From Bacteroidales bacterium (GTDB lineage Bacteria > Bacteroidota > Bacteroidia > Bacteroidales > UBA932): a stretch of DNA of 64,000 bases. The stretch covers positions 1,577 to 65,576 of the forward strand of contig SUYL01000037.1 of NCBI GenBank assembly GCA_015060445.1, given 5' to 3'. The position numbers and the translations under genes are program-made. The notes under the pieces are model-generated. The model had not been told where the DNA came from. It saw only the letters and a program-made list of their open reading frames with translations, and did no database searches. Shown in pieces: positions 24,278 to 64,000 of the stretch; within the stretch, counting starts at the first letter, position 1, and the number at the start of each line of letters is the position of its first letter.

Positions 24278-25441
24278 TTATCTGAGCCTGTATTTGTAGA
24301 AGTGTTTGCGGATTAGGGTGAGGAGGTAAACAAGCCCCAGGATTGTGAGGGCAAATCCTACAGCGTATGCTGTTGAATAGTTTGAGTATTGGGCAATTAT
24401 GCCGCCGCAGAAAACTCCTGCTCCCACTCCTAGATCAAAGAATGTGAGATAGGTGGCATTTGCGGCTCCCCGTTCTGTATCTTCACCCAGGTTTATTATC
24501 ATTGTTTGGGCAGTGGGGGAGATGAGTCCGTAGCCTATGCCCATAAAGATGGCGGAGGAGTAGAATGCTGTGGGGTTAAGTATGAATGCCACTATAAAGA
24601 ACCCGATAATGAGGGAGATTATCCCCAGTGCAAATACCATTATATATTTCCCGCTCCGCAGAATCATTGATGATGAGAGTCGTGCGGCTACAAGACCGGC
24701 GGAGAATATGGTAAAGTAGTATCCTGTACCTTGGGTAAGTCCAACCTCTTCCTTTGCGTATATTGAGAGATACACTGTAATTATTCCGTATCCGAATGTA
24801 AGGAGCACCATTACGGCAGCAACCGGAAGACCCTTCCGCAGGAGCAGGCTGGAGATGCTGAATTTTCTGTTAGAACGCTGCACATCCTTGCCAGGCTTTA
24901 TGTTTGCTGTGGCCAGAAATCCTGTCAGGCCAACGCAGAATACCGCAATGAAAATGGTATTGAATTCAATACCGTTCTCATTCATAAAAAGAGAGATAAG
25001 CGGTCCTGTGGCCATGGCAAGGGAGGTAGATGAGGTATAGATTCCCAATCCTTCTCCTCTCCGTTCCCAGGGGATGATATCTACAGCCATTGTATTTATC
25101 CCTACGGTTGAGCACCCGAAGGCTATGCCGTGTACAAAGCGGATTATAAAGAAAAGTCCCAATGTGGCTGCCAGTGTGTAACTCAGGCACATTGAGATAT
25201 AGAAAAGATAGAAGCACATCATAAGGGGCTTGCGGGAGGCTTTGTCGAGCCAGAATCCTGCTACAGGCCTTGTTATGAGTGCCGCTATAGTATAAAGGGA
25301 CAATATTGTCCCTATTATTGATTCACTTGCGTGAAGATGGTTTGCCAGATATAGTGGCAAAATGGGCAACAACATGTAAAAAGCGTTGTACATTAAGAAG
25401 TTGCCCAAGTTTACCAATATGAAGTTCCTGTTCCAAAGCAT
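24278..25441 (-). CDS. MFS transporter
   Basis: ~12 predicted TM helices, loop motif GFWLDKASRKP. Likely start MLWNRNFILVNLGNF at 25441 (track start is 25483). Confidence 0.85.
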   Translation of the reverse strand: MLWNRNFILVNLGNFLMYNAFYMLLPILPLYLANHLHASESIIGTILSLYTIAALITRPVAGFWLDKASRKPLMMCFYLFYISMCLSYTLAATLGLFFIIRFVHGIAFGCSTVGINTMAVDIIPWERRGEGLGIYTSSTSLAMATGPLISLFMNENGIEFNTIFIAVFCVGLTGFLATANIKPGKDVQRSNRKFSISSLLLRKGLPVAAVMVLLTFGYGIITVYLSIYAKEEVGLTQGTGYYFTIFSAGLVAARLSSSMILRSGKYIMVFALGIISLIIGFFIVAFILNPTAFYSSAIFMGIGYGLISPTAQTMIINLGEDTERGAANATYLTFFDLGVGAGVFCGGIIAQYSNYSTAYAVGFALTILGLVYLLTLIRKHFYKYRLR

Positions 25442-25560
25442 TATTTTGCTTTCTCCATTTTTCTTATTTCCCTGTTTATACAACTCCAGGTATAAACAAC
25501 TGAAACAATCATTGCAACAACTGTTGCGTAACCCATTGCGTTAAGTAAAAATTCTCTCAT
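25441..25560 (-). CDS. Possible 39-aa single-TM micro-protein upstream of the MFS gene
   Basis: MREFLLNAMGYATVVAMIVSVVYTWSCINREIRKMEKAK. Its stop overlaps the MFS start (TAATG). The small size makes this speculative. Confidence 0.3.
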   Translation of the reverse strand: MREFLLNAMGYATVVAMIVSVVYTWSCINREIRKMEKAK

Positions 25561-25600
25561 GACACCTGATATTTTAGTTTGTACTGTTTTGTTTACAGTG

Positions 25601-25637
25601 CAAAAATATCCTGGTGTTTTGTCAACTTTTGACACAA
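25601..25637 (-). promoter_or_regulatory. Promoter-like element: 22-nt motif TTGTGTCAAAAGTTGACAAAAC, 7 nt, then TATTTTTG (-7 box TAnnTTTG)
   Basis: Read on the minus strand (plus-strand mirror copy at 63158-63194). The same architecture occurs at 35059-35095. Confidence 0.35.
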
Positions 25638-25658
25638 GAAAATTTTCTGCAAAAAATT

Positions 25659-26459
25659 TTAATATCCCAGATTGTCACCCCTCATAAGTTTCTGGAAGAA
25701 GGCGATATGCTGCTCAAGGGCAAATCCCCAATAAGGCCACGAGTGCTTTCCGGGAGTGAGTAGTGCAAAATGGGGTATTCCCATGTAGCGGCATTTCTCA
25801 GAGAAAAGGTCTGTACATCTTACATAGAAATCATCATAACCGCAACTGATTATGAACGGTTTGTTCTTTCCCTCAAGTTTGTGTACCCTGTTTATTGCAC
25901 TCTCCTGTGCAAGTCTCTCAACTTTGTCGCCAATAACCTCAGGTATCTGGTTCTTTTTTAGTGGAGTAAGTTCAAGGTCAAGGACGCCGCTCATACTTCC
26001 TGCAGACTTGAACATGTCGGGATTATCAAGGAAAAGGTTCATTGCGCCGTGTCCTCCCATGCTCAAACCTGTAATGAATGTCCTCTCCGGAACAAGGTTG
26101 AACTTTTTCTGCATCATAGGGAAAAGTTCACTCCAGAAGAAGGTTCTCCACTGCATCTTCTGGGGATCTGTATTGTTCAGATACCATCCGTTGTAGAAAC
26201 CGTCGGGACAAATGATACGGAAATTAGTTCTGTTGCTTATCTCTTGAATGTCATGTTTCTTGCTCCAGTCTTTGTAGCATCCGCTCCATCCGTGAAGAAG
26301 GAACAGGGTAGGGGTCTGGTCATTTACATTTTCTGGGGTAAAAACTAGAATTGAATCATTGCATTTGAGGTTAGGACTCTCAATTACAATAAGTTCTTGG
26401 GCACTTGCTCTGCCCATTGCCATAATGCACAGCAATAATGCAACTGCAAAACGAATCAT
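25659..26459 (-). CDS. Secreted alpha/beta-hydrolase esterase (esterase D / CE1-like)
   Basis: Signal peptide. FLLHGWSG, nucleophile elbow GLSMGGHGA. Confidence 0.8.
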   Translation of the reverse strand: MIRFAVALLLCIMAMGRASAQELIVIESPNLKCNDSILVFTPENVNDQTPTLFLLHGWSGCYKDWSKKHDIQEISNRTNFRIICPDGFYNGWYLNNTDPQKMQWRTFFWSELFPMMQKKFNLVPERTFITGLSMGGHGAMNLFLDNPDMFKSAGSMSGVLDLELTPLKKNQIPEVIGDKVERLAQESAINRVHKLEGKNKPFIISCGYDDFYVRCTDLFSEKCRYMGIPHFALLTPGKHSWPYWGFALEQHIAFFQKLMRGDNLGY

Positions 26460-26513
26460 AATATTAAAAGTTATTTTTTGGTTATAAGCGCAAAATTAGT
26501 GTATTTTTGTGAT

Positions 26514-28607
26514 ATGGATATTATAAATGTAAATAAAACGAAGGCCATTTTAAAGAAAAGGTCCGTTTATGTGAGCCTCTCGCTGGCTTTTATAGTAATG
26601 ATGCTGTTTTTCCCCAATGAGGGAAAATTCCCATATGAATACCATAAGGGGCGTCCGTGGATGTATGAAACACTTATAGCACCCATAGATTTTCCAATCC
26701 TCAAAACAGAAGCGGAACTCTTTGCAGAGAGGGATGCCGCAGCCGCAAAGGTGGTACCTTACTACATTTATGATGAAACTGTGGCGCCACTGCAGCAGGG
26801 AACCCTGGCGCACATGCAGATACGCCATTCAATTCCGTCAGATATGGAAAAGGAACTTGCAGGGGTATTGGAGCATGTATATGAAACAGGTATTATTCCC
26901 GACAATTCCGACCTCCCTGCAGGACGCACAAGTTATGTAATTGTGCAGAAGGAGAGGAGGGCAACAGAGCAACTTCTGCAGGACCTCTTCACAGTTTCCT
27001 CTGCGCAGCAGTATATAAAATCAGATATAAAACTGAATCTTCCGCAGTACAATGCAGATTCGCTCCTTGCACTGTATGGGATAGACAACCTTGTACAGCC
27101 AAACCTCATCTTCAGCCAGCAGAATACAGATCTTCTGCACAAGGAGGCGATGGATTTCATTTCCCCTACAAAAGGGATGGTGTACTCCGGACAACTTATT
27201 GTAACAGAAGGTGAGACAATAACTGCTGAGATTCAGCAGTTGCTTGATTCCTACAAGGCAGAGTATGAGATCAGTTATGGATACACCGGCAATTTGTGGC
27301 AACTCTATATTGCACATGCCATTGTATGCATTGTTGTACTGCTGCTGGTTTACGTTACAATTTACTTTGTGAACTTCAATATCCTTACCGAGAGCAACCG
27401 TTTCAATTTCATACTGCTGGTTGTCCTTATGGCATTCCTCATAACAGTCTTTGCCAGAAGGCTCGATCCTCAGTTCATGTTTATGGTCCCTTATGCGGTT
27501 TTTGCCCTCTATATGATGGCATTCTTCAGGAACAAACTGGTATTCCCCATATACATGATTTCATTGTTGCCATTGCTTATAATATCAGAAAATGGAATAG
27601 AACTCTATATGCTCAATGCTGTTGCCGGCGGTATAGCACTTGTCTCATTCTCGTTCCTTTACAGGGGATGGCTGCAGTTCCTCAATTCCTTCATAATCTT
27701 TGTGGGAATGTTTATCCTGCATCTTGCTTTCAGGATGATGGAGGGTGGTGTCTTTGATGCTGCAAACTATACAACAATTGCCTTCATCTTCTGCAATGCA
27801 TTTCTGGTTGTGGCTGCATATCCTCTTGTATTCCTCCTTGAGAAGATATTCATGCTGGTATCTGTAGCAACACTCAAGGACCTTTCCGATACCAACAACA
27901 GACTTCTGCAGGAGTTGGCCCGCAAGGCACCGGGTACATTCCAGCACTCTCTGCAGGTTGCAAATATGGCCGAGAGGGCTGTTCTTGCCATACGTGGAAA
28001 CTCCCGACTTGTTAAAGTAGGTGCCATGTACCACGACATAGGAAAGATAAACAATCCCCAGTGCTTCATTGAGAACCAGGCTCCGGGAGTGGAGTATCAC
28101 AAAGGGCTTTCTCCACAGGAGAGTGCCAAGGAGATAATTAGGCATGTGGCTGACGGTGTGGAGATAGCAAGGAAACACAATCTGCCGCAGATAGTGGTTG
28201 ACTTTATAACATCACACCACGGACGTTCGCAGACGGCATATTTCTATACCCAGTACTGCAATAACGGCGGAGACCCTGCCAATACCTTTGATTTTACATA
28301 TCAGGGGACCCTTCCAACTGCAAAAGAACAGGTGGTGGTAATGATGGCAGATGCCGTTGAAGCAGCCTCACGCACCCTTAAGGACTATTCTGCCGAGAGT
28401 ATCTCCAAATTGGTTGAAGGTATTACAAGCCAGAGGATCAACGATTCCCAACTCGCTATGGCAGACATCTCAATAAAGGAGATAAATGTAGTTAAGGCAG
28501 TATTCAAGAAACATCTTCAGGAAATATACCATGCCCGCATTGCATATCCTCCAAAAAAGGATGGAAACAGCAAGAGAGATGTGCTGGTGAATGAGGATAC
28601 CGAGTAG
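26514..28607 (+). CDS. 7TM-receptor HD/HDIG phosphohydrolase (PgpH-like)
   Basis: Seven-helix central block. FQHSLQVANMAE and GAMYHDIGK (HDIG), ITSHHG. The ATG at 26514 (MDIINVNK) is preferred over the TTG track start at 26478. Confidence 0.85.
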   Translation: MDIINVNKTKAILKKRSVYVSLSLAFIVMMLFFPNEGKFPYEYHKGRPWMYETLIAPIDFPILKTEAELFAERDAAAAKVVPYYIYDETVAPLQQGTLAHMQIRHSIPSDMEKELAGVLEHVYETGIIPDNSDLPAGRTSYVIVQKERRATEQLLQDLFTVSSAQQYIKSDIKLNLPQYNADSLLALYGIDNLVQPNLIFSQQNTDLLHKEAMDFISPTKGMVYSGQLIVTEGETITAEIQQLLDSYKAEYEISYGYTGNLWQLYIAHAIVCIVVLLLVYVTIYFVNFNILTESNRFNFILLVVLMAFLITVFARRLDPQFMFMVPYAVFALYMMAFFRNKLVFPIYMISLLPLLIISENGIELYMLNAVAGGIALVSFSFLYRGWLQFLNSFIIFVGMFILHLAFRMMEGGVFDAANYTTIAFIFCNAFLVVAAYPLVFLLEKIFMLVSVATLKDLSDTNNRLLQELARKAPGTFQHSLQVANMAERAVLAIRGNSRLVKVGAMYHDIGKINNPQCFIENQAPGVEYHKGLSPQESAKEIIRHVADGVEIARKHNLPQIVVDFITSHHGRSQTAYFYTQYCNNGGDPANTFDFTYQGTLPTAKEQVVVMMADAVEAASRTLKDYSAESISKLVEGITSQRINDSQLAMADISIKEINVVKAVFKKHLQEIYHARIAYPPKKDGNSKRDVLVNEDTE

Positions 28608-28629
28608 TTTTATTGTAAAAAGATAGAAA

Positions 28630-28861
28630 GTGAAAAAGATAATCAATCCATATGCAGGGACATCTGAAGGTCTGGGCTACAACTGCTTTGCTTGCGCCCC
28701 TGAAAATACGTGCGGTTTAAAGATGGAATTTTGTAATTATGGAGATTACCCTAACTGCAAACGGTACGCTATGTTCCACAGCAGAAGCAACTTACTATTG
28801 TTTCTCCCGAGAAAAGGCGGAAAAAGAATTCCACTTCCTTCCATACGAGGTGGAAGAGTGA
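28630..28861 (+). pseudogene. PaaI/hotdog-fold thioesterase gene with internal deletion and frameshift
   Basis: The N-terminal 36-38 codons (MKKIINPYAGTSEGLGYNCFACAPENTCGLKMEF) are family-typical. From 28739 a different frame reads EITLTANGTLCSTAEATYYCFSREKAEKEFHFLPYEVEE* (stop 28859-28861), a typical C-terminus. The central ~65-70 codons of a ~140-150-aa protein are missing. Confidence 0.55.
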
Positions 28862-28997
28862 TGGATTGACCCGGCTTTTCCGGTAGAATTGAGCTGTTCT
28901 TCCACAAAACTGCGCTAAAATGAGGACAAAAGTTTCTTCTGGGCGTTTTGCATCCACACCGGATACCTCTTTTGTGGACAGATAGCGGCAAAAATTA

Positions 28998-29035
28998 AAT
29001 TCCTCCACAAAACATAACGCTTTTGTGGAGGAATT
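28998..29035. terminator. Bidirectional terminator-like hairpin between convergent genes
   Basis: AATTCCTCCACAAAA / TTTTGTGGAGGAATT, 15-bp stem with an 8-nt loop, A/T runs on both sides. Confidence 0.6.
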
Positions 29036-29131
29036 CATATTTTCAGTGCCTGGTGCGGGGTTGCTTTTGCATGGCCGCCATCACGAAACCGCCTTTGCAT
29101 AGCACCTTTGCATGGCCGGAGCCGGGGACTG

Positions 29132-30658
29132 TTACTTTCTTACAAACTCACCTACAGGATCCACTATGTCAAATGTTAGTGACTGGGCGCGGTTCCCTTT
29201 TACTGTGAATGTAAGGTCAAATGTACCTGAGCCTTTTGCGTAGAAGGTAAATACATTACCGTTTTTATGTTTCAGAGGGCTGTCTACCTTGCGCAGGTTG
29301 AAATACAACTCCCCATCCTTCTCATAAACTTTGGCAGTACCAAAAGGCTCAAGGGTATAGTTGCCTACATAAGCCTTGTTTGCCAGTGCGGCAACTGGTG
29401 TAACCTCTTCTTTTGCCTTAGGCTCATCTTTGCTGAACAGATCCTCTTTATAGTCTGCAAAATACTCGTCAAAATAAGATGATTTGTTCCCTTTGTAAAG
29501 TTCAATCAGGTCACGGCCTATGGCAGACTGAGGGTCTGAAGAACTTCCGTTGTTTGTAAGGAATACAAATCCAAGGTCCATTTCAGGAACCATTCCCACC
29601 AATGCAGTATAGCCGTATGCCAGACCGGTATGCCTAATGTAGCGTCCCTGCTCTCCAAACTCAACTGTCCAACCCTGGGCGTAGTTGGTAAGGCGTGTAG
29701 AGTCACTTCCGGTAATGGTTTGAGGATACCACAGCATATCATGATTTTTGCGTGAGATAATCTCCTTGCCGTTGAATGTACCGTGGTTAAGGTGCATCTT
29801 TACCCAGTTTGCCATATCCTCAACTGTAGAGATTACAAAACCTGCAGGGGCAACCGCAGAAAGCCATGCAAATGCATCCTCCTTGTCTGTACGGGGTACA
29901 ACAACAATCTCGTCCTTCTCCTCCGCTTTCCTCATCCTGTAACCCTGGGCAAGGTTTTCAGCGGTGTAGAAAGAGATGTTTCCGGTTGTGGAGTTTTTCA
30001 TTCCAAGAGGGGTGAAGATGCGCTCAATCAAAGCCTCATCCCAACTTTTCCCTGTATATTTCTCAATGATTTTGGCAGCAATTGTGTACATGCTGTTGTT
30101 GTAGGCATATTTTGTACGGAAACTGTAGGTTGGCTGAAGTACAGAGTAGATCTTGTAAAGGTCATCCCTGTCATAGCCCCAAGGTGGAAGGTCGTCAAGG
30201 GCATAACTGTTGAATCCGCTGTGGTGCGACATTATCTCCCTTACCTGGAAATTTTTGGTAACCCAAGGGTCGTACATTTTAAAATCAGGCAGGTAATTGA
30301 TAACCGGGGCATCCCATTTTATCTCGGGATACTCATCCATTACATTTGCCAATAGTCCCGATGTAAATGCCTTTGAGGTTGATGCAATTACAAACTGGGT
30401 CTGTGGGGTAACCGGTACCGGTGCTGTAAGAGAGTCTCCAAGGTGGGCATTTCCATATCCTTTCATGAAAACCACCTCACCGTCCTTTACAACGGCAACG
30501 GCCATTCCAGGAACTTTCCACTCGTCAATGGCACGCTGGCACATTGCGTCAAATCCGTCGGGAATGGATTTATAATACTTCTGAGAAGGGTTGTTGCCGC
30601 AGGAAACAATAATTGCAGCCAGCAGTGCTGCAGCAACAAGATTGAATAGTTTTTTCAT
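29132..30658 (-). CDS. Serine hydrolase of the beta-lactamase (class C / DD-peptidase-like) family, lipoprotein
   Basis: SxxK IASTSKAF, YxN YAYNNS. Lipobox LLAAIIVSCG. Extra C-terminal beta domain. Confidence 0.85.
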   Translation of the reverse strand: MKKLFNLVAAALLAAIIVSCGNNPSQKYYKSIPDGFDAMCQRAIDEWKVPGMAVAVVKDGEVVFMKGYGNAHLGDSLTAPVPVTPQTQFVIASTSKAFTSGLLANVMDEYPEIKWDAPVINYLPDFKMYDPWVTKNFQVREIMSHHSGFNSYALDDLPPWGYDRDDLYKIYSVLQPTYSFRTKYAYNNSMYTIAAKIIEKYTGKSWDEALIERIFTPLGMKNSTTGNISFYTAENLAQGYRMRKAEEKDEIVVVPRTDKEDAFAWLSAVAPAGFVISTVEDMANWVKMHLNHGTFNGKEIISRKNHDMLWYPQTITGSDSTRLTNYAQGWTVEFGEQGRYIRHTGLAYGYTALVGMVPEMDLGFVFLTNNGSSSDPQSAIGRDLIELYKGNKSSYFDEYFADYKEDLFSKDEPKAKEEVTPVAALANKAYVGNYTLEPFGTAKVYEKDGELYFNLRKVDSPLKHKNGNVFTFYAKGSGTFDLTFTVKGNRAQSLTFDIVDPVGEFVRK

Positions 30659-30759
30659 AAAGATAGAATTTATTTTGGTTCAAAATTAAGCAAACTTCCA
30701 CACAATTATGGCATTTTTTCAATGTTTCTTATCTTTGTCCCCTATAAAAACTGAAAATT

Positions 30760-31473
30760 ATGGACAAGGTATCGGGAAACCCTTTAAAAAACCGAGTGAA
30801 AGCACGTCTGCGTGCCGGAGGTCAGTCTGTGAGCAACCAGACTGCACTTATGGTGGTTACGGCGCTGTTCGTATCCTCCTATCTCATCTCAAATACAATG
30901 GCCGTAAAGGTTATAGGCCTTTTCAATATCTTCTATTTTGATGCCGGAACAATAACATTCCCCTTTGCATATATGCTTGGTGATGTGCTTACTGAGATTT
31001 GGGGCTTCAGAATTTCAAAGAGGGTGATATGGACAACCTTTTTCTGCAATATCCTTATGGTGGTGTGTACCCAAATAGGGGTTTGTCTCCCTTCTCCGGA
31101 GCATCTTGGTGAGACAGCGGCTGCATATGACCACATTTTCAACTATGTGCCCCGTATTGTGTTGGCTTCGTTGGTGGGATTCCTGTGTGGAGAACTCTCC
31201 AATGCCTGGCTTATGGTAAAGATAAGGGAGAAGACAAAGGGAAAGCATCTGTGGGTGCGTACTATAGGAAGTTCTGCAGTGGGATATGTCTTTGACAGCC
31301 TGCCGTTTGTGCTTATTGCTTTTGCGGGAACGGTATCTGTAAGGGAACTGCTCCTTATGATAGCCTTCCAGTATTGCAGCAAACTCCTCATAGAAACGGT
31401 GTTTGGAACTCCGCTGGCTTATGCGGCAATAAGGTTCATAAGGAAATATGTCAGATTGGACTACAACAATTAA
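30760..31473 (+). CDS. yhhQ: Queuosine-precursor transporter (YhhQ/DUF165, VUT family)
   Basis: ITFPFAYMLGDVLTEIWGF motif, ~6 TM helices, 237 aa. Confidence 0.8.
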   Translation: MDKVSGNPLKNRVKARLRAGGQSVSNQTALMVVTALFVSSYLISNTMAVKVIGLFNIFYFDAGTITFPFAYMLGDVLTEIWGFRISKRVIWTTFFCNILMVVCTQIGVCLPSPEHLGETAAAYDHIFNYVPRIVLASLVGFLCGELSNAWLMVKIREKTKGKHLWVRTIGSSAVGYVFDSLPFVLIAFAGTVSVRELLLMIAFQYCSKLLIETVFGTPLAYAAIRFIRKYVRLDYNN

Positions 31474-31485
31474 AAAACTATACTT

Positions 31486-32196
31486 ATGAAAAAACTGTTT
31501 GTATTGTGTATTGCCATTATGGCATTGAGTTTTGCCGCTGCCAGTGAGGCTAAGGCTCAGAACATACAGGTTCTGTATGATACAGAGCGTGAATGTGTAA
31601 CTTCAACAATAGAGATGTTCCGTCCGGATGCATGGGGAAGCACATTTTTCTTTGTTGATTTGGATTACACCCCAAATGTGAGCGGAGCATATTGGGAACT
31701 TTCAAGGGAGTTGTGCTTCTGGAAAGAGAGCAACCTTTCATGGCTCTCTTTGCACCTTGAGTTCAATGGAGGTCTTAATAATGTTGCCGGATCATTCAAT
31801 AATGCCTGGCTTGCAGGTCTTACATACTCTGGACACTCAAAGGATTTCAGCAAGACCTGGTCACTCTCTGCAATGTACAAACTCATTCCGGATACAATAG
31901 GTCTGGATGGAGAGGAGCAGGAGAGCAATTTCCAGATTACCGGAGTATGGGGAATTACCTTCGCCGACGGATGGTGCTCTTTCAGCGGATTTGCAGATTT
32001 CTGGAGGGAGGCAAGACCTTGGCAGGATACAGAGTACATCTTCCTGGCAGAGCCTCAGTTCTGGGTTAACCTCAACAAGATTGAGGGGTGGAAAGATGTT
32101 AACCTGAGTGTTGGCGGCGAGTTGGAACTCTCTTCAAATTTCTTTGAGAAAGGGTTCAAGGCAATACCTGCACTTGGCGTAAAATGGACTTTCTAA
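31486..32196 (+). CDS. Small outer-membrane beta-barrel protein (DUF5020 / Tsx-like)
   Basis: Signal peptide ..AASEAKAQ. NIQVLYDTE...TIEMFRPDAWGSTFFFVDLDY. Terminal GVKWTF. The family name is from memory. Confidence 0.6.
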   Translation: MKKLFVLCIAIMALSFAAASEAKAQNIQVLYDTERECVTSTIEMFRPDAWGSTFFFVDLDYTPNVSGAYWELSRELCFWKESNLSWLSLHLEFNGGLNNVAGSFNNAWLAGLTYSGHSKDFSKTWSLSAMYKLIPDTIGLDGEEQESNFQITGVWGITFADGWCSFSGFADFWREARPWQDTEYIFLAEPQFWVNLNKIEGWKDVNLSVGGELELSSNFFEKGFKAIPALGVKWTF

Positions 32197-32205
32197 TAAA
32201 ACGAT

Positions 32206-32502
32206 ATGTATTTTACAGGAATACTTATAGGACTTGCAACCTTCCTTATTATAGGACTTTTTCATCCTATAGTAATTAAGGCAGAATATTACCTTGGAAC
32301 AAAATGCTGGTGGGCTTTCCTGCTCGCCGGCATCCTGTTCTGCGGATTGTCCCTTATAGTGGCTAATGTAATTCTGTCCACAGTGTTTGGTGTTACGGCA
32401 TTCTCTTCATTCTGGAGCATCCTTGAACTCTTTGAACAGAAAGAGAGGGTTAAGAAAGGGTGGTTCCCTGAAGGCCCGGGCCACAAGAGACAATTACCTT
32501 AA
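32206..32502 (+). CDS. Small integral membrane protein (98 aa)
   Basis: Three hydrophobic helices. 9 bp after the preceding gene. Confidence 0.55.
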   Translation: MYFTGILIGLATFLIIGLFHPIVIKAEYYLGTKCWWAFLLAGILFCGLSLIVANVILSTVFGVTAFSSFWSILELFEQKERVKKGWFPEGPGHKRQLP

Positions 32503-32853
32503 TGTCTTGTACGAAAGGATATGTATTGTGATTCCTGCCGCAAGGAGGATGAACAAAAGACTCAACGCCCAGTGCCCTGCAATGCCAAATGCACAATAAA
32601 GCAGTGTAATCCACACTGTAGTTACTGATATTATCTTTACTCTCAATGGAATAGCCTTGTGCTTTAGGAAGTTTGTTATATAGGGCCCCAGACGGGGATG
32701 GTTCATCAGCCAGTCATACAATCTTCTGTTGCTTCTGAGGAATAATGCCGCAGAAAGAAGCAATAGGGGTGTTGTGGGGAGCAGGGGAAGAAAAATCCCG
32801 AGTATTCCCAATCCCAGTGAAATTGTTCCCAATATCGTAAGAAAAATCTTCAT
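32494..32853 (-). CDS. YbaN/DUF454 family inner-membrane protein
   Basis: LGILGIFLPLLPTTPLLLLSAALFLRSNRRLYDWL is the family signature. Confidence 0.75.
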   Translation of the reverse strand: MKIFLTILGTISLGLGILGIFLPLLPTTPLLLLSAALFLRSNRRLYDWLMNHPRLGPYITNFLKHKAIPLRVKIISVTTVWITLLYCAFGIAGHWALSLLFILLAAGITIHILSYKTLR

Positions 32854-32946
32854 ATTGTCTGCTGAACCAAAAATAACATGTTTACAGCGGGCAAAGATAC
32901 TTTTTTTATGCTACATTTAAAGTTTCAAATAACAGGAATAGAATAT

Positions 32947-55848: not shown

Positions 55849-55941
55849 ATATTCTATTCCTGTTATTTGAAACTTTAAATGTAGCATAAAAAAAGTATCT
55901 TTGCCCGCTGTAAACATGTTATTTTTGGTTCAGCAGACAAT

Positions 55942-56301
55942 ATGAAGATTTTTCTTACGATATTGGGAACAATTTCACTGGGATTGGGAATACTCGGGAT
56001 TTTTCTTCCCCTGCTCCCCACAACACCCCTATTGCTTCTTTCTGCGGCATTATTCCTCAGAAGCAACAGAAGATTGTATGACTGGCTGATGAACCATCCC
56101 CGTCTGGGGCCCTATATAACAAACTTCCTAAAGCACAAGGCTATTCCATTGAGAGTAAAGATAATATCAGTAACTACAGTGTGGATTACACTGCTTTATT
56201 GTGCATTTGGCATTGCAGGGCACTGGGCGTTGAGTCTTTTGTTCATCCTCCTTGCGGCAGGAATCACAATACATATCCTTTCGTACAAGACATTAAGGTA
56301 A
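55942..56301 (+). CDS. YbaN/DUF454 protein (mirror copy of 32494..32853)
   Basis: Identical 119-aa translation. Confidence 0.7.
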   Translation: MKIFLTILGTISLGLGILGIFLPLLPTTPLLLLSAALFLRSNRRLYDWLMNHPRLGPYITNFLKHKAIPLRVKIISVTTVWITLLYCAFGIAGHWALSLLFILLAAGITIHILSYKTLR

Positions 56302-56589
56302 TTGTCTCTTGTGGCCCGGGCCTTCAGGGAACCACCCTTTCTTAACCCTCTCTTTCTGTTCAAAGAGTTCAAGGATGCTCCAGAATGAAGAGAATGCCGT
56401 AACACCAAACACTGTGGACAGAATTACATTAGCCACTATAAGGGACAATCCGCAGAACAGGATGCCGGCGAGCAGGAAAGCCCACCAGCATTTTGTTCCA
56501 AGGTAATATTCTGCCTTAATTACTATAGGATGAAAAAGTCCTATAATAAGGAAGGTTGCAAGTCCTATAAGTATTCCTGTAAAATACAT
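56293..56589 (-). CDS. Small membrane protein (mirror copy of 32206..32502)
   Basis: Identical 98-aa translation. Confidence 0.5.
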   Translation of the reverse strand: MYFTGILIGLATFLIIGLFHPIVIKAEYYLGTKCWWAFLLAGILFCGLSLIVANVILSTVFGVTAFSSFWSILELFEQKERVKKGWFPEGPGHKRQLP

Positions 56590-56598
56590 ATCGTTTTA

Positions 56599-57309
56599 TT
56601 AGAAAGTCCATTTTACGCCAAGTGCAGGTATTGCCTTGAACCCTTTCTCAAAGAAATTTGAAGAGAGTTCCAACTCGCCGCCAACACTCAGGTTAACATC
56701 TTTCCACCCCTCAATCTTGTTGAGGTTAACCCAGAACTGAGGCTCTGCCAGGAAGATGTACTCTGTATCCTGCCAAGGTCTTGCCTCCCTCCAGAAATCT
56801 GCAAATCCGCTGAAAGAGCACCATCCGTCGGCGAAGGTAATTCCCCATACTCCGGTAATCTGGAAATTGCTCTCCTGCTCCTCTCCATCCAGACCTATTG
56901 TATCCGGAATGAGTTTGTACATTGCAGAGAGTGACCAGGTCTTGCTGAAATCCTTTGAGTGTCCAGAGTATGTAAGACCTGCAAGCCAGGCATTATTGAA
57001 TGATCCGGCAACATTATTAAGACCTCCATTGAACTCAAGGTGCAAAGAGAGCCATGAAAGGTTGCTCTCTTTCCAGAAGCACAACTCCCTTGAAAGTTCC
57101 CAATATGCTCCGCTCACATTTGGGGTGTAATCCAAATCAACAAAGAAAAATGTGCTTCCCCATGCATCCGGACGGAACATCTCTATTGTTGAAGTTACAC
57201 ATTCACGCTCTGTATCATACAGAACCTGTATGTTCTGAGCCTTAGCCTCACTGGCAGCGGCAAAACTCAATGCCATAATGGCAATACACAATACAAACAG
57301 TTTTTTCAT
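56599..57309 (-). CDS. DUF5020/Tsx-like outer-membrane protein (mirror copy of 31486..32196)
   Basis: Identical 236-aa translation. Confidence 0.55.
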   Translation of the reverse strand: MKKLFVLCIAIMALSFAAASEAKAQNIQVLYDTERECVTSTIEMFRPDAWGSTFFFVDLDYTPNVSGAYWELSRELCFWKESNLSWLSLHLEFNGGLNNVAGSFNNAWLAGLTYSGHSKDFSKTWSLSAMYKLIPDTIGLDGEEQESNFQITGVWGITFADGWCSFSGFADFWREARPWQDTEYIFLAEPQFWVNLNKIEGWKDVNLSVGGELELSSNFFEKGFKAIPALGVKWTF

Positions 57310-57321
57310 AAGTATAGTTTT

Positions 57322-58035
57322 TTAATTGTTGTAGTCCAATCTGACATATTTCCTTATGAACCTTATTGCCGCATAAGCCAGCGGAGTTCCAAACACCGTT
57401 TCTATGAGGAGTTTGCTGCAATACTGGAAGGCTATCATAAGGAGCAGTTCCCTTACAGATACCGTTCCCGCAAAAGCAATAAGCACAAACGGCAGGCTGT
57501 CAAAGACATATCCCACTGCAGAACTTCCTATAGTACGCACCCACAGATGCTTTCCCTTTGTCTTCTCCCTTATCTTTACCATAAGCCAGGCATTGGAGAG
57601 TTCTCCACACAGGAATCCCACCAACGAAGCCAACACAATACGGGGCACATAGTTGAAAATGTGGTCATATGCAGCCGCTGTCTCACCAAGATGCTCCGGA
57701 GAAGGGAGACAAACCCCTATTTGGGTACACACCACCATAAGGATATTGCAGAAAAAGGTTGTCCATATCACCCTCTTTGAAATTCTGAAGCCCCAAATCT
57801 CAGTAAGCACATCACCAAGCATATATGCAAAGGGGAATGTTATTGTTCCGGCATCAAAATAGAAGATATTGAAAAGGCCTATAACCTTTACGGCCATTGT
57901 ATTTGAGATGAGATAGGAGGATACGAACAGCGCCGTAACCACCATAAGTGCAGTCTGGTTGCTCACAGACTGACCTCCGGCACGCAGACGTGCTTTCACT
58001 CGGTTTTTTAAAGGGTTTCCCGATACCTTGTCCAT
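57322..58035 (-). CDS. yhhQ: Queuosine-precursor transporter YhhQ (mirror copy of 30760..31473)
   Basis: Identical 237-aa translation. Confidence 0.75.
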   Translation of the reverse strand: MDKVSGNPLKNRVKARLRAGGQSVSNQTALMVVTALFVSSYLISNTMAVKVIGLFNIFYFDAGTITFPFAYMLGDVLTEIWGFRISKRVIWTTFFCNILMVVCTQIGVCLPSPEHLGETAAAYDHIFNYVPRIVLASLVGFLCGELSNAWLMVKIREKTKGKHLWVRTIGSSAVGYVFDSLPFVLIAFAGTVSVRELLLMIAFQYCSKLLIETVFGTPLAYAAIRFIRKYVRLDYNN

Positions 58036-58136
58036 AATTTTCAGTTTTTATAGGGGACAAAGATAAGAAACATTGAAAAAATGCCATAATTGTGTGGAAG
58101 TTTGCTTAATTTTGAACCAAAATAAATTCTATCTTT

Positions 58137-59663
58137 ATGAAAAAACTATTCAATCTTGTTGCTGCAGCACTGCTGGCTGCAATTATTGTTTCCTGCGGCA
58201 ACAACCCTTCTCAGAAGTATTATAAATCCATTCCCGACGGATTTGACGCAATGTGCCAGCGTGCCATTGACGAGTGGAAAGTTCCTGGAATGGCCGTTGC
58301 CGTTGTAAAGGACGGTGAGGTGGTTTTCATGAAAGGATATGGAAATGCCCACCTTGGAGACTCTCTTACAGCACCGGTACCGGTTACCCCACAGACCCAG
58401 TTTGTAATTGCATCAACCTCAAAGGCATTTACATCGGGACTATTGGCAAATGTAATGGATGAGTATCCCGAGATAAAATGGGATGCCCCGGTTATCAATT
58501 ACCTGCCTGATTTTAAAATGTACGACCCTTGGGTTACCAAAAATTTCCAGGTAAGGGAGATAATGTCGCACCACAGCGGATTCAACAGTTATGCCCTTGA
58601 CGACCTTCCACCTTGGGGCTATGACAGGGATGACCTTTACAAGATCTACTCTGTACTTCAGCCAACCTACAGTTTCCGTACAAAATATGCCTACAACAAC
58701 AGCATGTACACAATTGCTGCCAAAATCATTGAGAAATATACAGGGAAAAGTTGGGATGAGGCTTTGATTGAGCGCATCTTCACCCCTCTTGGAATGAAAA
58801 ACTCCACAACCGGAAACATCTCTTTCTACACCGCTGAAAACCTTGCCCAGGGTTACAGGATGAGGAAAGCGGAGGAGAAGGACGAGATTGTTGTTGTACC
58901 CCGTACAGACAAGGAGGATGCATTTGCATGGCTTTCTGCGGTTGCCCCTGCAGGTTTTGTAATCTCTACAGTTGAGGATATGGCAAACTGGGTAAAGATG
59001 CACCTTAACCACGGTACATTCAACGGCAAGGAGATTATCTCACGCAAAAATCATGATATGCTGTGGTATCCTCAAACCATTACCGGAAGTGACTCTACAC
59101 GCCTTACCAACTACGCCCAGGGTTGGACAGTTGAGTTTGGAGAGCAGGGACGCTACATTAGGCATACCGGTCTGGCATACGGCTATACTGCATTGGTGGG
59201 AATGGTTCCTGAAATGGACCTTGGATTTGTATTCCTTACAAACAACGGAAGTTCTTCAGACCCTCAGTCTGCCATAGGCCGTGACCTGATTGAACTTTAC
59301 AAAGGGAACAAATCATCTTATTTTGACGAGTATTTTGCAGACTATAAAGAGGATCTGTTCAGCAAAGATGAGCCTAAGGCAAAAGAAGAGGTTACACCAG
59401 TTGCCGCACTGGCAAACAAGGCTTATGTAGGCAACTATACCCTTGAGCCTTTTGGTACTGCCAAAGTTTATGAGAAGGATGGGGAGTTGTATTTCAACCT
59501 GCGCAAGGTAGACAGCCCTCTGAAACATAAAAACGGTAATGTATTTACCTTCTACGCAAAAGGCTCAGGTACATTTGACCTTACATTCACAGTAAAAGGG
59601 AACCGCGCCCAGTCACTAACATTTGACATAGTGGATCCTGTAGGTGAGTTTGTAAGAAAGTAA
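58137..59663 (+). CDS. Beta-lactamase-family serine hydrolase (mirror copy of 29132..30658)
   Basis: Identical 508-aa translation. Confidence 0.8.
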   Translation: MKKLFNLVAAALLAAIIVSCGNNPSQKYYKSIPDGFDAMCQRAIDEWKVPGMAVAVVKDGEVVFMKGYGNAHLGDSLTAPVPVTPQTQFVIASTSKAFTSGLLANVMDEYPEIKWDAPVINYLPDFKMYDPWVTKNFQVREIMSHHSGFNSYALDDLPPWGYDRDDLYKIYSVLQPTYSFRTKYAYNNSMYTIAAKIIEKYTGKSWDEALIERIFTPLGMKNSTTGNISFYTAENLAQGYRMRKAEEKDEIVVVPRTDKEDAFAWLSAVAPAGFVISTVEDMANWVKMHLNHGTFNGKEIISRKNHDMLWYPQTITGSDSTRLTNYAQGWTVEFGEQGRYIRHTGLAYGYTALVGMVPEMDLGFVFLTNNGSSSDPQSAIGRDLIELYKGNKSSYFDEYFADYKEDLFSKDEPKAKEEVTPVAALANKAYVGNYTLEPFGTAKVYEKDGELYFNLRKVDSPLKHKNGNVFTFYAKGSGTFDLTFTVKGNRAQSLTFDIVDPVGEFVRK

Positions 59664-59933
59664 CAGTCCCCGGCTCCGGCCATGCAAAGGTGCTATGCAA
59701 AGGCGGTTTCGTGATGGCGGCCATGCAAAAGCAACCCCGCACCAGGCACTGAAAATATGAATTCCTCCACAAAAGCGTTATGTTTTGTGGAGGAATTTAA
59801 TTTTTGCCGCTATCTGTCCACAAAAGAGGTATCCGGTGTGGATGCAAAACGCCCAGAAGAAACTTTTGTCCTCATTTTAGCGCAGTTTTGTGGAAGAACA
59901 GCTCAATTCTACCGGAAAAGCCGGGTCAATCCA

Positions 59934-60165
59934 TCACTCTTCCACCTCGTATGGAAGGAAGTGGAATTCTTTTTCCGCCTTTTCTCGGGAGAAACAATAG
60001 TAAGTTGCTTCTGCTGTGGAACATAGCGTACCGTTTGCAGTTAGGGTAATCTCCATAATTACAAAATTCCATCTTTAAACCGCACGTATTTTCAGGGGCG
60101 CAAGCAAAGCAGTTGTAGCCCAGACCTTCAGATGTCCCTGCATATGGATTGATTATCTTTTTCAC
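59934..60165 (-). pseudogene. Internally deleted PaaI-type thioesterase (mirror copy of 28630..28861)
   Basis: Mirror coordinates. Confidence 0.5.
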
Positions 60166-60187
60166 TTTCTATCTTTTTACAATAAAA

Positions 60188-62281
60188 CTACTCGGTATCC
60201 TCATTCACCAGCACATCTCTCTTGCTGTTTCCATCCTTTTTTGGAGGATATGCAATGCGGGCATGGTATATTTCCTGAAGATGTTTCTTGAATACTGCCT
60301 TAACTACATTTATCTCCTTTATTGAGATGTCTGCCATAGCGAGTTGGGAATCGTTGATCCTCTGGCTTGTAATACCTTCAACCAATTTGGAGATACTCTC
60401 GGCAGAATAGTCCTTAAGGGTGCGTGAGGCTGCTTCAACGGCATCTGCCATCATTACCACCACCTGTTCTTTTGCAGTTGGAAGGGTCCCCTGATATGTA
60501 AAATCAAAGGTATTGGCAGGGTCTCCGCCGTTATTGCAGTACTGGGTATAGAAATATGCCGTCTGCGAACGTCCGTGGTGTGATGTTATAAAGTCAACCA
60601 CTATCTGCGGCAGATTGTGTTTCCTTGCTATCTCCACACCGTCAGCCACATGCCTAATTATCTCCTTGGCACTCTCCTGTGGAGAAAGCCCTTTGTGATA
60701 CTCCACTCCCGGAGCCTGGTTCTCAATGAAGCACTGGGGATTGTTTATCTTTCCTATGTCGTGGTACATGGCACCTACTTTAACAAGTCGGGAGTTTCCA
60801 CGTATGGCAAGAACAGCCCTCTCGGCCATATTTGCAACCTGCAGAGAGTGCTGGAATGTACCCGGTGCCTTGCGGGCCAACTCCTGCAGAAGTCTGTTGT
60901 TGGTATCGGAAAGGTCCTTGAGTGTTGCTACAGATACCAGCATGAATATCTTCTCAAGGAGGAATACAAGAGGATATGCAGCCACAACCAGAAATGCATT
61001 GCAGAAGATGAAGGCAATTGTTGTATAGTTTGCAGCATCAAAGACACCACCCTCCATCATCCTGAAAGCAAGATGCAGGATAAACATTCCCACAAAGATT
61101 ATGAAGGAATTGAGGAACTGCAGCCATCCCCTGTAAAGGAACGAGAATGAGACAAGTGCTATACCGCCGGCAACAGCATTGAGCATATAGAGTTCTATTC
61201 CATTTTCTGATATTATAAGCAATGGCAACAATGAAATCATGTATATGGGGAATACCAGTTTGTTCCTGAAGAATGCCATCATATAGAGGGCAAAAACCGC
61301 ATAAGGGACCATAAACATGAACTGAGGATCGAGCCTTCTGGCAAAGACTGTTATGAGGAATGCCATAAGGACAACCAGCAGTATGAAATTGAAACGGTTG
61401 CTCTCGGTAAGGATATTGAAGTTCACAAAGTAAATTGTAACGTAAACCAGCAGCAGTACAACAATGCATACAATGGCATGTGCAATATAGAGTTGCCACA
61501 AATTGCCGGTGTATCCATAACTGATCTCATACTCTGCCTTGTAGGAATCAAGCAACTGCTGAATCTCAGCAGTTATTGTCTCACCTTCTGTTACAATAAG
61601 TTGTCCGGAGTACACCATCCCTTTTGTAGGGGAAATGAAATCCATCGCCTCCTTGTGCAGAAGATCTGTATTCTGCTGGCTGAAGATGAGGTTTGGCTGT
61701 ACAAGGTTGTCTATCCCATACAGTGCAAGGAGCGAATCTGCATTGTACTGCGGAAGATTCAGTTTTATATCTGATTTTATATACTGCTGCGCAGAGGAAA
61801 CTGTGAAGAGGTCCTGCAGAAGTTGCTCTGTTGCCCTCCTCTCCTTCTGCACAATTACATAACTTGTGCGTCCTGCAGGGAGGTCGGAATTGTCGGGAAT
61901 AATACCTGTTTCATATACATGCTCCAATACCCCTGCAAGTTCCTTTTCCATATCTGACGGAATTGAATGGCGTATCTGCATGTGCGCCAGGGTTCCCTGC
62001 TGCAGTGGCGCCACAGTTTCATCATAAATGTAGTAAGGTACCACCTTTGCGGCTGCGGCATCCCTCTCTGCAAAGAGTTCCGCTTCTGTTTTGAGGATTG
62101 GAAAATCTATGGGTGCTATAAGTGTTTCATACATCCACGGACGCCCCTTATGGTATTCATATGGGAATTTTCCCTCATTGGGGAAAAACAGCATCATTAC
62201 TATAAAAGCCAGCGAGAGGCTCACATAAACGGACCTTTTCTTTAAAATGGCCTTCGTTTTATTTACATTTATAATATCCAT
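60188..62281 (-). CDS. 7TM-HD/HDIG phosphohydrolase (mirror copy of 26514..28607)
   Basis: Identical translation. Confidence 0.8.
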   Translation of the reverse strand: MDIINVNKTKAILKKRSVYVSLSLAFIVMMLFFPNEGKFPYEYHKGRPWMYETLIAPIDFPILKTEAELFAERDAAAAKVVPYYIYDETVAPLQQGTLAHMQIRHSIPSDMEKELAGVLEHVYETGIIPDNSDLPAGRTSYVIVQKERRATEQLLQDLFTVSSAQQYIKSDIKLNLPQYNADSLLALYGIDNLVQPNLIFSQQNTDLLHKEAMDFISPTKGMVYSGQLIVTEGETITAEIQQLLDSYKAEYEISYGYTGNLWQLYIAHAIVCIVVLLLVYVTIYFVNFNILTESNRFNFILLVVLMAFLITVFARRLDPQFMFMVPYAVFALYMMAFFRNKLVFPIYMISLLPLLIISENGIELYMLNAVAGGIALVSFSFLYRGWLQFLNSFIIFVGMFILHLAFRMMEGGVFDAANYTTIAFIFCNAFLVVAAYPLVFLLEKIFMLVSVATLKDLSDTNNRLLQELARKAPGTFQHSLQVANMAERAVLAIRGNSRLVKVGAMYHDIGKINNPQCFIENQAPGVEYHKGLSPQESAKEIIRHVADGVEIARKHNLPQIVVDFITSHHGRSQTAYFYTQYCNNGGDPANTFDFTYQGTLPTAKEQVVVMMADAVEAASRTLKDYSAESISKLVEGITSQRINDSQLAMADISIKEINVVKAVFKKHLQEIYHARIAYPPKKDGNSKRDVLVNEDTE

Positions 62282-62335
62282 ATCACAAAAATACACTAAT
62301 TTTGCGCTTATAACCAAAAAATAACTTTTAATATT

Positions 62336-63136
62336 ATGATTCGTTTTGCAGTTGCATTATTGCTGTGCATTATGGCAATGGGCAGAGCAAGTGCCCAAGA
62401 ACTTATTGTAATTGAGAGTCCTAACCTCAAATGCAATGATTCAATTCTAGTTTTTACCCCAGAAAATGTAAATGACCAGACCCCTACCCTGTTCCTTCTT
62501 CACGGATGGAGCGGATGCTACAAAGACTGGAGCAAGAAACATGACATTCAAGAGATAAGCAACAGAACTAATTTCCGTATCATTTGTCCCGACGGTTTCT
62601 ACAACGGATGGTATCTGAACAATACAGATCCCCAGAAGATGCAGTGGAGAACCTTCTTCTGGAGTGAACTTTTCCCTATGATGCAGAAAAAGTTCAACCT
62701 TGTTCCGGAGAGGACATTCATTACAGGTTTGAGCATGGGAGGACACGGCGCAATGAACCTTTTCCTTGATAATCCCGACATGTTCAAGTCTGCAGGAAGT
62801 ATGAGCGGCGTCCTTGACCTTGAACTTACTCCACTAAAAAAGAACCAGATACCTGAGGTTATTGGCGACAAAGTTGAGAGACTTGCACAGGAGAGTGCAA
62901 TAAACAGGGTACACAAACTTGAGGGAAAGAACAAACCGTTCATAATCAGTTGCGGTTATGATGATTTCTATGTAAGATGTACAGACCTTTTCTCTGAGAA
63001 ATGCCGCTACATGGGAATACCCCATTTTGCACTACTCACTCCCGGAAAGCACTCGTGGCCTTATTGGGGATTTGCCCTTGAGCAGCATATCGCCTTCTTC
63101 CAGAAACTTATGAGGGGTGACAATCTGGGATATTAA
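62336..63136 (+). CDS. Secreted esterase (mirror copy of 25659..26459)
   Basis: Identical 266-aa translation. Confidence 0.75.
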   Translation: MIRFAVALLLCIMAMGRASAQELIVIESPNLKCNDSILVFTPENVNDQTPTLFLLHGWSGCYKDWSKKHDIQEISNRTNFRIICPDGFYNGWYLNNTDPQKMQWRTFFWSELFPMMQKKFNLVPERTFITGLSMGGHGAMNLFLDNPDMFKSAGSMSGVLDLELTPLKKNQIPEVIGDKVERLAQESAINRVHKLEGKNKPFIISCGYDDFYVRCTDLFSEKCRYMGIPHFALLTPGKHSWPYWGFALEQHIAFFQKLMRGDNLGY

Positions 63137-63234
63137 AATTTTTTGCAGAAAATTTTCTTGTGTCAAAAGTTGACAAAACACCAGGATATTTTTGCACTGT
63201 AAACAAAACAGTACAAACTAAAATATCAGGTGTC

Positions 63235-63354
63235 ATGAGAGAATTTTTACTTAACGCAATGGGTTACGCAACAGTTGTTGCAATGATTGTTTCAGTTGTT
63301 TATACCTGGAGTTGTATAAACAGGGAAATAAGAAAAATGGAGAAAGCAAAATAA
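63235..63354 (+). CDS. Possible 39-aa TM micro-protein (mirror copy of 25441..25560)
   Basis: ATG at 63235; the stop overlaps the MFS start. Confidence 0.25.
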   Translation: MREFLLNAMGYATVVAMIVSVVYTWSCINREIRKMEKAK

Positions 63355-64000
63355 TGCTTTGGAACAGGAACTTCATATTGGTAAACTTGGGCAACTTCTT
63401 AATGTACAACGCTTTTTACATGTTGTTGCCCATTTTGCCACTATATCTGGCAAACCATCTTCACGCAAGTGAATCAATAATAGGGACAATATTGTCCCTT
63501 TATACTATAGCGGCACTCATAACAAGGCCTGTAGCAGGATTCTGGCTCGACAAAGCCTCCCGCAAGCCCCTTATGATGTGCTTCTATCTTTTCTATATCT
63601 CAATGTGCCTGAGTTACACACTGGCAGCCACATTGGGACTTTTCTTTATAATCCGCTTTGTACACGGCATAGCCTTCGGGTGCTCAACCGTAGGGATAAA
63701 TACAATGGCTGTAGATATCATCCCCTGGGAACGGAGAGGAGAAGGATTGGGAATCTATACCTCATCTACCTCCCTTGCCATGGCCACAGGACCGCTTATC
63801 TCTCTTTTTATGAATGAGAACGGTATTGAATTCAATACCATTTTCATTGCGGTATTCTGCGTTGGCCTGACAGGATTTCTGGCCACAGCAAACATAAAGC
63901 CTGGCAAGGATGTGCAGCGTTCTAACAGAAAATTCAGCATCTCCAGCCTGCTCCTGCGGAAGGGTCTTCCGGTTGCTGCCGTAATGGTGCTCCTTACATT
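63354..64000 (+). CDS. MFS transporter, 5' part only (mirror copy of 24278..25441, cut by the window end)
   Basis: ATG at 63354 (MLWNRNFILVNLGNF...). The frame is open to the window end, so it is absent from the ORF track. Confidence 0.8.
   Translation, partial: MLWNRNFILVNLGNFLMYNAFYMLLPILPLYLANHLHASESIIGTILSLYTIAALITRPVAGFWLDKASRKPLMMCFYLFYISMCLSYTLAATLGLFFIIRFVHGIAFGCSTVGINTMAVDIIPWERRGEGLGIYTSSTSLAMATGPLISLFMNENGIEFNTIFIAVFCVGLTGFLATANIKPGKDVQRSNRKFSISSLLLRKGLPVAAVMVLLT

Follow-up and report, generated by a model that had tools for sequence, protein, structure and literature searches.

The stretch of DNA analysed here, referred to as the window, comprises 64,000 nucleotides of a contig from a metagenome-assembled genome (MAG) of the Bacteroidales. 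Positions 1-44403 (plus strand) are genuine single-copy chromosomal sequence and form the part of a contig segment, designated X, that lies within the window; this assignment is based on collinear independent contigs and on a Pfam scan of the 20 proteins encoded in 16153-44349, which indicated an ordinary chromosomal gene content. The last gene before the fold (42244-44349, plus strand) is real and encodes a TonB-dependent-receptor-like protein of 701 amino acids with a weak Plug domain. A mirror copy of this gene is present at 44446-46551 on the minus strand, and the symmetry of the palindrome, together with the paired accessions of the receptor (MBE6246820.1 and MBE6246821.1, which are one identical sequence), identifies it as an artefactual duplicate. 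An open reading frame of 144 amino acids (43999-44433, minus strand, with its mirror at 44362-44796, plus strand) crosses the axis between the two copies; it is not a gene and owes its existence solely to the fold, and a search of sequence databases for its product found no gene on record. Scans of the window for tRNAs and Rfam families gave no matches, and no tmRNA gene was found in it.

Symmetry of the window and of the contig

The earlier note had described a perfect palindrome without a spacer, in which the open reading frames are repeated in mirror orientation, and both parts of this description are upheld by a full pairwise comparison of the arms. When every position x in 44398-64000 was compared with position 88795-x, all of the 19,603 mirrored pairs were found to be complementary (19,603/19,603, no mismatches), an exactness that is far beyond chance for arms of 19,603 bp. 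The axis is located at 44397/44398 and the spacer is absent. Because the arms are complementary throughout, open reading frames are mirrored, as in the identity of 42244-44349 (plus strand) with 44446-46551 (minus strand). The left arm visible in the window is 24795-44397 (plus strand), complementary at every position to 44398-64000, but its left limit is set by the end of the window and not by biology. Position 24795, previously taken as the start of the palindrome, merely mirrors position 64000, where the window ends, and genes further to the left are also duplicated; similarly, an arm of at least 19,603 bp is correct for the visible part but, owing to the window limit, underestimates the size, which is at least 45.56 kb.

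The centre of a perfect 12-bp palindrome that is native to the genome, AGTTTTAAAACT (44392-44403), coincides with the axis of the large palindrome. It begins 43 bp past the stop codon of the receptor gene and was found in every independent contig that reaches the site. Because this native palindrome spans 44392-44403, the last base common to the window and the native genome is 44403 rather than 44397. Non-native sequence consequently occupies 44404-64000 of the window (minus strand) and is a spurious reverse complement of 24795-44391 that displaces the native continuation, GACCTGAATTCATATG.... Half-arms of at least 6 bases are present at 15 of the 49,631 axes of the native sequence (∼3e-4), and the six native bases past the axis agree with the fold (p ∼3e-4). 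No other long inverted repeat able to mediate the fold was found in the unique part of the sequence, and a pre-existing repeat of this kind was rejected as the mediator. The position of the axis points to the centre of AGTTTTAAAACT as the site of a strand switch, and to microhomology-primed strand switching or hairpin priming as the type of event of which it is the signature.

The mirror duplication is not confined to the window but extends to an nSTAND1 gene that starts to the left of it. Among 13 proteins of the window strain that were tested, 11 have two GenBank accessions each and the remaining 2 have none. The 11 pairs of accessions are symmetric about MBE6246820/821, each pair summing to 12,493,641 (785+856 ... 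820+821), and imply 36 CDS per arm, out to the outermost gene; the accessions run from MBE6246785 to MBE6246856 (locus tags E7110_05400-05595). The longest contig of the MAG has an even number of bases (91,946 bp, or 2 x 45,973), and this length, together with the 11 symmetric pairs, indicates that the whole contig is X followed by the reverse complement of X. The GenBank contig thus appears to be a complete structure of this type, as judged from accession pairs and length arithmetic rather than from the contig sequence, with an arm of at least 45.56 kb whose most likely length, half that of the contig, is 45,973 bp. A half-length of 45,973 puts the start of the contig within an IS21 istB gene at window position -1575 (∼1,576 bases before the window begins), and the independent contig L019 ends exactly at -1575; we infer that both outer ends of the GenBank contig lie in the same IS21 repeat. 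The accession pairs and length arithmetic also indicate that no distinct unique sequence follows the second arm, within which the window ends. The window is very likely part of the 91,946-bp GenBank contig. The window allele of a YhcG-like gene, with 3 amino-acid differences from L001, was not on record when four start codons were tried, in look-ups that may have missed two non-ATG variants because the first residue was translated as L or V.

The fold site in independent assemblies

The comparison with related genomes suggested in the earlier note gave a uniform result. Twelve independent metagenome contigs (JGI and ENA/MEGAHIT), which represent the same or a near-identical strain and are 99.6-100% identical to the window, agree with it up to 44403, and all 12 then share one unique continuation, containing tmRNA, LysE, Lnt, and SPFH genes, that is missing from the window; the fold-back is present in 0 of these 12 junction-spanning contigs. 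The native continuation, GACCTGAATTCATATG..., is identical in nine contigs (0-2 mismatches) and was seen again in L025, L027, and L028, and the tmRNA gene was detected in the native downstream sequence. One JGI contig of 51,144 bp, which has the native arrangement, matches the window at every base over 22,874 bp (100.000% identity) and represents essentially the same strain. Independent contigs are collinear with the window and 99.5-100% identical to it across 1-14935, 6153-29026, and 32244-44403, and the window has no indels relative to the Illumina contigs. The native downstream genes (LysE, Lnt, SPFH, and DNA-binding) have single accessions, MBE6247419-7416, that are about 600 numbers away from those of the palindrome and probably belong to another contig of the same MAG, in which case the native continuation is still present in the organism.

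A search with a 40-nt sequence of the fold-back junction gave no matches in three public collections of genome, metagenome, and viral contigs, and a shorter, 24-nt form gave none in public metagenome contigs. The native junction had no matches among GTDB representative genomes, which therefore include no reference genome of the species. The related public data for the organism are short-read assemblies, consisting of MEGAHIT k141, Logan, and JGI contigs. The Logan contig L008 stops exactly at 44403; there is no known strain SNP near this position, and a SNP was rejected for this reason as the cause of the contig end. The end of L008 suggests that junction k-mers are present in the raw reads of SRR7031287 and that a population of physical molecules carried the junction, which could in principle have formed in vivo. 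It should be noted separately that a small fold-back tip at 39805/39836, unrelated to the one described here, occurs with an identical junction in two different samples (L003 and L006).

Origin of the palindrome

The structure very probably represents a real chromosomal segment X of ∼46 kb that has been joined to its own reverse complement in a metagenome-assembled contig. The palindrome is, with a similarly high probability, not a real genomic feature but a fold-back assembly artefact at the native 12-base palindrome. A fold-back chimera that survived assembly had been proposed previously and is supported by the native arrangement of the 12 contigs, the absence of the junction from the three collections, and the apparent composition of the contig from X and its reverse complement. 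With respect to the causes that were listed for it, a chimeric strand switch fits the data, whereas neither an undetected hairpin adapter nor the fold-back of a nanopore read at a random end does, given that the axis is on a native palindrome.

Because no assembler works with k-mers or overlaps as short as 12 bp, reads bearing the junction must have existed, and the location of the axis on a short native palindrome shows that such artefacts arise from real chimeric molecules and not from a purely computational slip. We infer that the chimeric reads arose at end-repair or hairpin priming, during amplification, or, rarely, in vivo. In the proposed mechanism, a strand ending in the self-complementary AGTTTTAAAACT would anneal to the opposite strand or to a second copy, and extension of the annealed strand would generate a head-to-head junction in a few chimeric DNA molecules and hence in a few reads. 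This junction would join X to its own reverse complement in the assembly graph, so that the assembler could exit X through the junction link, instead of or besides the native path, and retrace the same nodes back to the IS21 repeat where X begins. The arms would be identical to the base because both are derived from the same reads.

There is a small probability that the duplication is genuine and arose by fold-back in vivo in a subpopulation of this uncultured member of the Bacteroidales. The event would have been initiated, improbably, by a break, stalled fork, or fork collapse just downstream of the receptor gene, beside the tmRNA locus, with a nascent 3' end switching at the 12-bp palindrome, and its product, to which the same low likelihood applies, would be a dimeric molecule, hairpin-capped or head-to-head, in sufficient abundance for sequencing and assembly. 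Although a short palindrome native to the genome underlies the axis, and an axis at a short inverted repeat is also a signature of palindrome formation in vivo, the native junction is present in 12 of 12 independent contigs, including one that is 100% identical over 22.9 kb. The end of L008 at the branch point suggests that junction reads were above noise in at least one run, but the junction is absent from public contig collections. The tips with identical junctions in L003 and L006 could, should the two samples be related cultures, reflect inherited variation, and a real giant inverted dimer would likewise assemble as X and its reverse complement, broken at the same repeat; however, Lnt, tmRNA, and the other genes of the native downstream region remain single-copy and apparently in the same MAG, the arms show no divergence, and distinct sequence past them is apparently absent. 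Furthermore, long perfect palindromes are unstable in bacteria, those without a spacer being cleaved by SbcCD and not stably kept.

A long-read artefact, arising from a SMRTbell without one adapter or from a nanopore complement read that followed the template strand, is still less probable. Such reads are known to yield palindromic sequences (PMC6218980, PMC13265396), but the ends of fragments are effectively random, yet six native bases past the axis fit the fold (p ∼3e-4). Similarly, although the lack of indels relative to the Illumina contigs is compatible with HiFi or polished data, the related public data for the organism are all short-read assemblies. The samples are presumably those of Peng et al. 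2021, to which they are tied by similar naming and dates. This probable source study, whose link to the samples is putative, used Illumina 2x150 sequencing and SPAdes (PMC8007473), and a long-read cause for the palindrome is unlikely. In a linear replicon, a telomere closed covalently as a hairpin, or the junction produced when a telomere is replicated, would also read as a perfect palindrome without a spacer, but its presence at the axis is effectively refuted by native read-through in independent assemblies, the site being internal in twelve contigs, the native self-complementarity being just 12 bp, the gene content being that of an ordinary chromosome, and the Pfam scan revealing no telomere-resolvase-like domain among the 20 proteins of 16153-44349. 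An invertible segment was also considered and rejected.

Implications and comparison with known palindromes

As an assembly artefact, the palindrome most likely has no biological significance: its genes are ordinary and the palindrome itself would not be present in the organism. The public MAG apparently contains ∼46 kb that is spurious, together with 36 protein records that are duplicated in mirrored order, which would pass for recent duplications and inflate both genome size and paralogue counts. A false adjacency of receptor with receptor is also created, and the true neighbour, tmRNA, is hidden. Artefacts of this type can be screened for as contigs that are equal to their own reverse complement or as symmetric pairs of protein accessions within a record. 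If the duplication were instead formed in vivo, it would offer a glimpse of how palindromes form naturally in a gut anaerobe, a giant palindromic segment having persisted until it was sequenced.

Fold-back in vivo at short inverted repeats underlies palindromic amplification in eukaryotes and inverted dimers in Escherichia coli. The present structure resembles these in that a giant perfect palindrome is centred on a short native one, but differs in that it is known from an assembly alone, and in that independent assemblies are native at the site and the downstream genes are retained.

Inverted chimeras formed in multiple displacement amplification (MDA) arise by priming at complementary sequences of 2-21 nt (Lasken & Stockwell 2007, PMC1855051), and palindromic long reads have been attributed to strand displacement and template switching (Pacasus, PMC6218980). 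The likeness to MDA chimeras lies in the priming of an inverted junction by a 3' end at a short region of complementarity (2-21 nt in MDA, 12 nt here), but MDA chimeras usually have an intervening deletion or loop, whereas the junction here is spacer-less. Hairpin-templated palindromic artefacts have also been described in Illumina libraries (Star et al. 2014, PMC3946424). In these, as proposed here, a single-stranded end folds or pairs at a short inverted repeat, and fill-in synthesis then gives reverse-complementary halves of a read; however, they involve degraded or ancient DNA and interrupted palindromes inside reads, as opposed to an assembled contig of 92 kb.

At the level of the contig, a study of M. 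bovis isolates assembled from short reads with SPAdes attributed 81 whole-contig palindromes to assembly errors (PMC9455707), and whole-contig palindromes have likewise been reported in single-cell cyanobacterial assemblies (bioRxiv 10.1101/2023.06.06.543983). These share with the present contig a sequence followed by its exact reverse complement, genes in mirror order with identical DNA, and inflated gene counts. The junction is undescribed in those reports, whereas in the present case the exact base of the fold, within a native 12-bp palindrome, has been identified, and independent assemblies reveal the native continuation.

The palindrome and the genes of the window

When each base x of 44398-64000 is compared directly with its partner at 88795-x, 19,603 of 19,603 pairs are complementary, with the axis between 44397 and 44398 and no spacer. 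The perfect spacer-less mirror described in the earlier note is thus borne out over its full length without a mismatch, and the mirrored ORFs that it recorded on the other strand follow from the exact complementarity of the bases. It placed the feature at 24795-64000; the symmetry stands, but position 24795 is the mirror of the window end and not a boundary.

The gene content is unremarkable for a Bacteroidota chromosome, with genes for TonB-dependent receptors and their DUF4249, DUF4876 and DUF6850 partners, an M28 peptidase, a serine beta-lactamase-family protein, an MFS transporter, a 7TM-HD protein, a YhcG/DUF1016 nuclease and a GNAT acetyltransferase, among others; in GenBank, identical proteins are titled 'MAG: ... 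[Bacteroidales bacterium]'. Scans of the window for tRNA genes and against Rfam gave no tRNA, tmRNA or Rfam match. A defence-like cluster at 1-6537, which extends up to 2.3 kb further left in the independent contigs L018 and L019 and adjoins an IS21-family istB, contains an nSTAND1 NTPase (1190 aa; weak PADLOC PDC-S60 match), a TssD/Hcp-like protein (133 aa), two more small proteins (133 and 142 aa), a Macro-TIR protein with ThsB-like TIR matches and an AAA_14/DUF4143 ATPase (PADLOC PDC-S01, E=1.5e-153). In the gap between the DUF6850 and nitroreductase genes, an imperfect inverted repeat at 21868-22006 (56-nt arms, 82% complementary, 27-nt loop, each arm with its own short hairpin) may be a bidirectional terminator or repeat element. 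The intergenic 47-nt inverted repeat pair 25599-25645 and 35051-35097, 81% complementary and 9.4 kb apart, has TTGTCAA...TTGACA-like motifs in each member and may represent a shared regulatory site.

The native arrangement in independent assemblies

The last gene before the axis (42244-44349, plus strand) encodes a 701-aa TonB-dependent-receptor-like protein and ends 48 bp from the axis; its identical product is present on at least 11 other public contigs. All 10 that were retrieved are 99.96-100% identical to the window up to 44403, and none matches it beyond that base. Nine run on with one common unique sequence, GACCTGAATTCATATG..., in which they differ from one another by 0-2 mismatches over lengths of up to 5.2 kb, and the tenth stops exactly at 44403; look-up with the downstream apolipoprotein N-acyltransferase (Lnt) yielded three more contigs that cross the site natively. 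The native continuation contains a tmRNA gene (158 bits), followed by the genes for LysE, Lnt and an SPFH protein. A JGI contig of 51,144 bp has 100.000% identity to the window over 22,874 bp, with three bases differing in another 12,160 bp. Its source is essentially the strain of the window, but the contig follows the native path. Searches of the genome, metagenome and viral contig collections for the 40-nt fold-back junction found no copy, nor did a search of metagenome_contigs with a 24-nt version, and protein look-up returned no record of the axis-crossing ORF.

A perfect palindrome of 50 bp without a spacer, ATCTCCACGAGAAAGGGGTTCACAATTGTGAACCCCTTTCTCGTGGAGAT, lies in the native sequence about 1.17 kb beyond the junction (13323-13372 of the independent contig L001) and extends into the 3' end of the tmRNA gene (13363-13764, minus strand). 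Several independent contigs have it, which marks it as natural and stable; it may be a terminator. The block at 38001-44400, comprising the genes for a TPR protein, a DUF4249 protein and the receptor, has a G+C content of 0.34-0.40, lower than that of the preceding 30 kb (0.43-0.47); it natively adjoins the 3' side of the tmRNA gene and may be an island integrated at ssrA. The window and the otherwise identical JGI contig have clustered nonsynonymous differences at 38007, 38035 and 38040 (V215I, P224H and A226T in the YhcG/DUF1016 nuclease). Both versions of this patch, which may reflect recombination or a mixed-strain consensus, circulate among related sequences, and the exact combination in the window is not on record in protein look-ups.

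The junction at the axis

In the native sequence, 44392-44403 is a perfect 12-bp palindrome, AGTTTTAAAACT, whose centre is the axis of the 39-kb palindrome, and the window and native sequence part at 44404. Half-arms of at least 6 occur at only 15 of the 49,631 possible axes of the reconstructed native sequence (3e-4), so that this location is no coincidence; the fold occurred where the strand end is self-complementary. No further long inverted repeat able to mediate a fold is present in the unique part of the window. Since 12 bases are fewer than any assembler's k-mer or overlap, we infer that reads carrying the junction must have existed and that the link is not purely computational. A k=31 unitig ends at a branch of the graph. 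The Logan contig L008 (SRR7031287_45051) stops at 44403, the last base common to the native and folded paths, with no known strain SNP within 300 bases of its end, which suggests a de Bruijn branch from fold-back reads in run SRR7031287.

Two JGI contigs from different samples, L003 and L006, start with the same small fold-back tip, in which the reverse complement of 39805-39867 is joined to 39836 onward through a 2-nt microhomology (L003 1-95; L006 1-83, a shorter version with 39805-39855). The site lies within the TPR-protein gene, and there are breaks at 39834-39872 in several more contigs. Fold-back chimeras seem to recur in these libraries or cultures, the event at 39805-39867 being seemingly a chimera or a graph branch.

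Extent and origin of the folded contig

Exact look-ups show that 11 of 13 proteins carry two GenBank accessions each, with every pair summing to 12,493,641. The innermost pair, MBE6246820/821, belongs to the receptors on either side of the axis, and the outermost, MBE6246785/856, to the nSTAND1 gene, one end of which lies beyond the left edge of the window; this amounts to 36 CDS per arm. The two proteins without any GenBank accession probably reflect different start calls or alleles. The largest contig with these proteins has 91,946 bp, and half of this, 45,973, sets its start at window coordinate -1575, the exact end of the independent MEGAHIT contig L019, inside istB of an IS21-family element. 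From the symmetry of the pairs and this coincidence with the L019 end, the GenBank contig appears to be the chromosomal segment that makes up the left arm, X, followed by its reverse complement, with both inferred ends in the same IS21 repeat. The window very likely belongs to this contig, although its YhcG-like allele is not on record. Each of the native downstream genes has one accession only (MBE6247416-7419), some 600 numbers from the mirrored set, and they probably lie on another contig of the same MAG.

It is highly probable that the 39-kb palindrome is not a property of the genome; the fold-back chimera surviving assembly that the earlier note proposed is supported by the native contigs, the axis on the 12-bp palindrome and the symmetric accession pairs. 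A genuine in vivo fold-back in a subpopulation should have the same junction signature and would likewise assemble as X and its reverse complement, but is very unlikely, since twelve contigs are native, the native downstream genes are retained and bacteria are known not to maintain long palindromes stably. An artefact of long reads, from an adapter or a fold-back read, is very improbable, as the axis depends on sequence and all related data are short-read. A hairpin telomere is refuted by the read-through in independent assemblies.

For a chimera, a minority of head-to-head molecules would have formed at the 12-bp palindrome and, in the assembly graph, joined X to its reverse complement; along this link the assembler would have walked back to the IS21 repeat at the start of X. 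Both arms would then derive from the same reads, hence their perfect identity, and it would also be clear why there is no spacer, why the length is even, why the inferred ends are identical and why the native continuation is missing.

The samples are similar to those that Peng et al. 2021 described from goat-gut enrichments, which may be their source. That study used Illumina 2x150 sequencing and SPAdes 3.11.1, with MAGs under PRJNA530070 (PMC8007473). In MDA the main artefact is an inverted chimera, with priming by 2-21 complementary nt (PMC1855051), and Illumina library preparation yields hairpin-templated palindromes (PMC3946424). In practice the palindrome flags a public MAG contig as faulty and illustrates cleanly where such folds begin. 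Palindromes that span a whole contig, as inferred here, have been called assembly errors among M. bovis isolates assembled with SPAdes (81 contigs; PMC9455707) and in single-cell assemblies (bioRxiv 10.1101/2023.06.06.543983).
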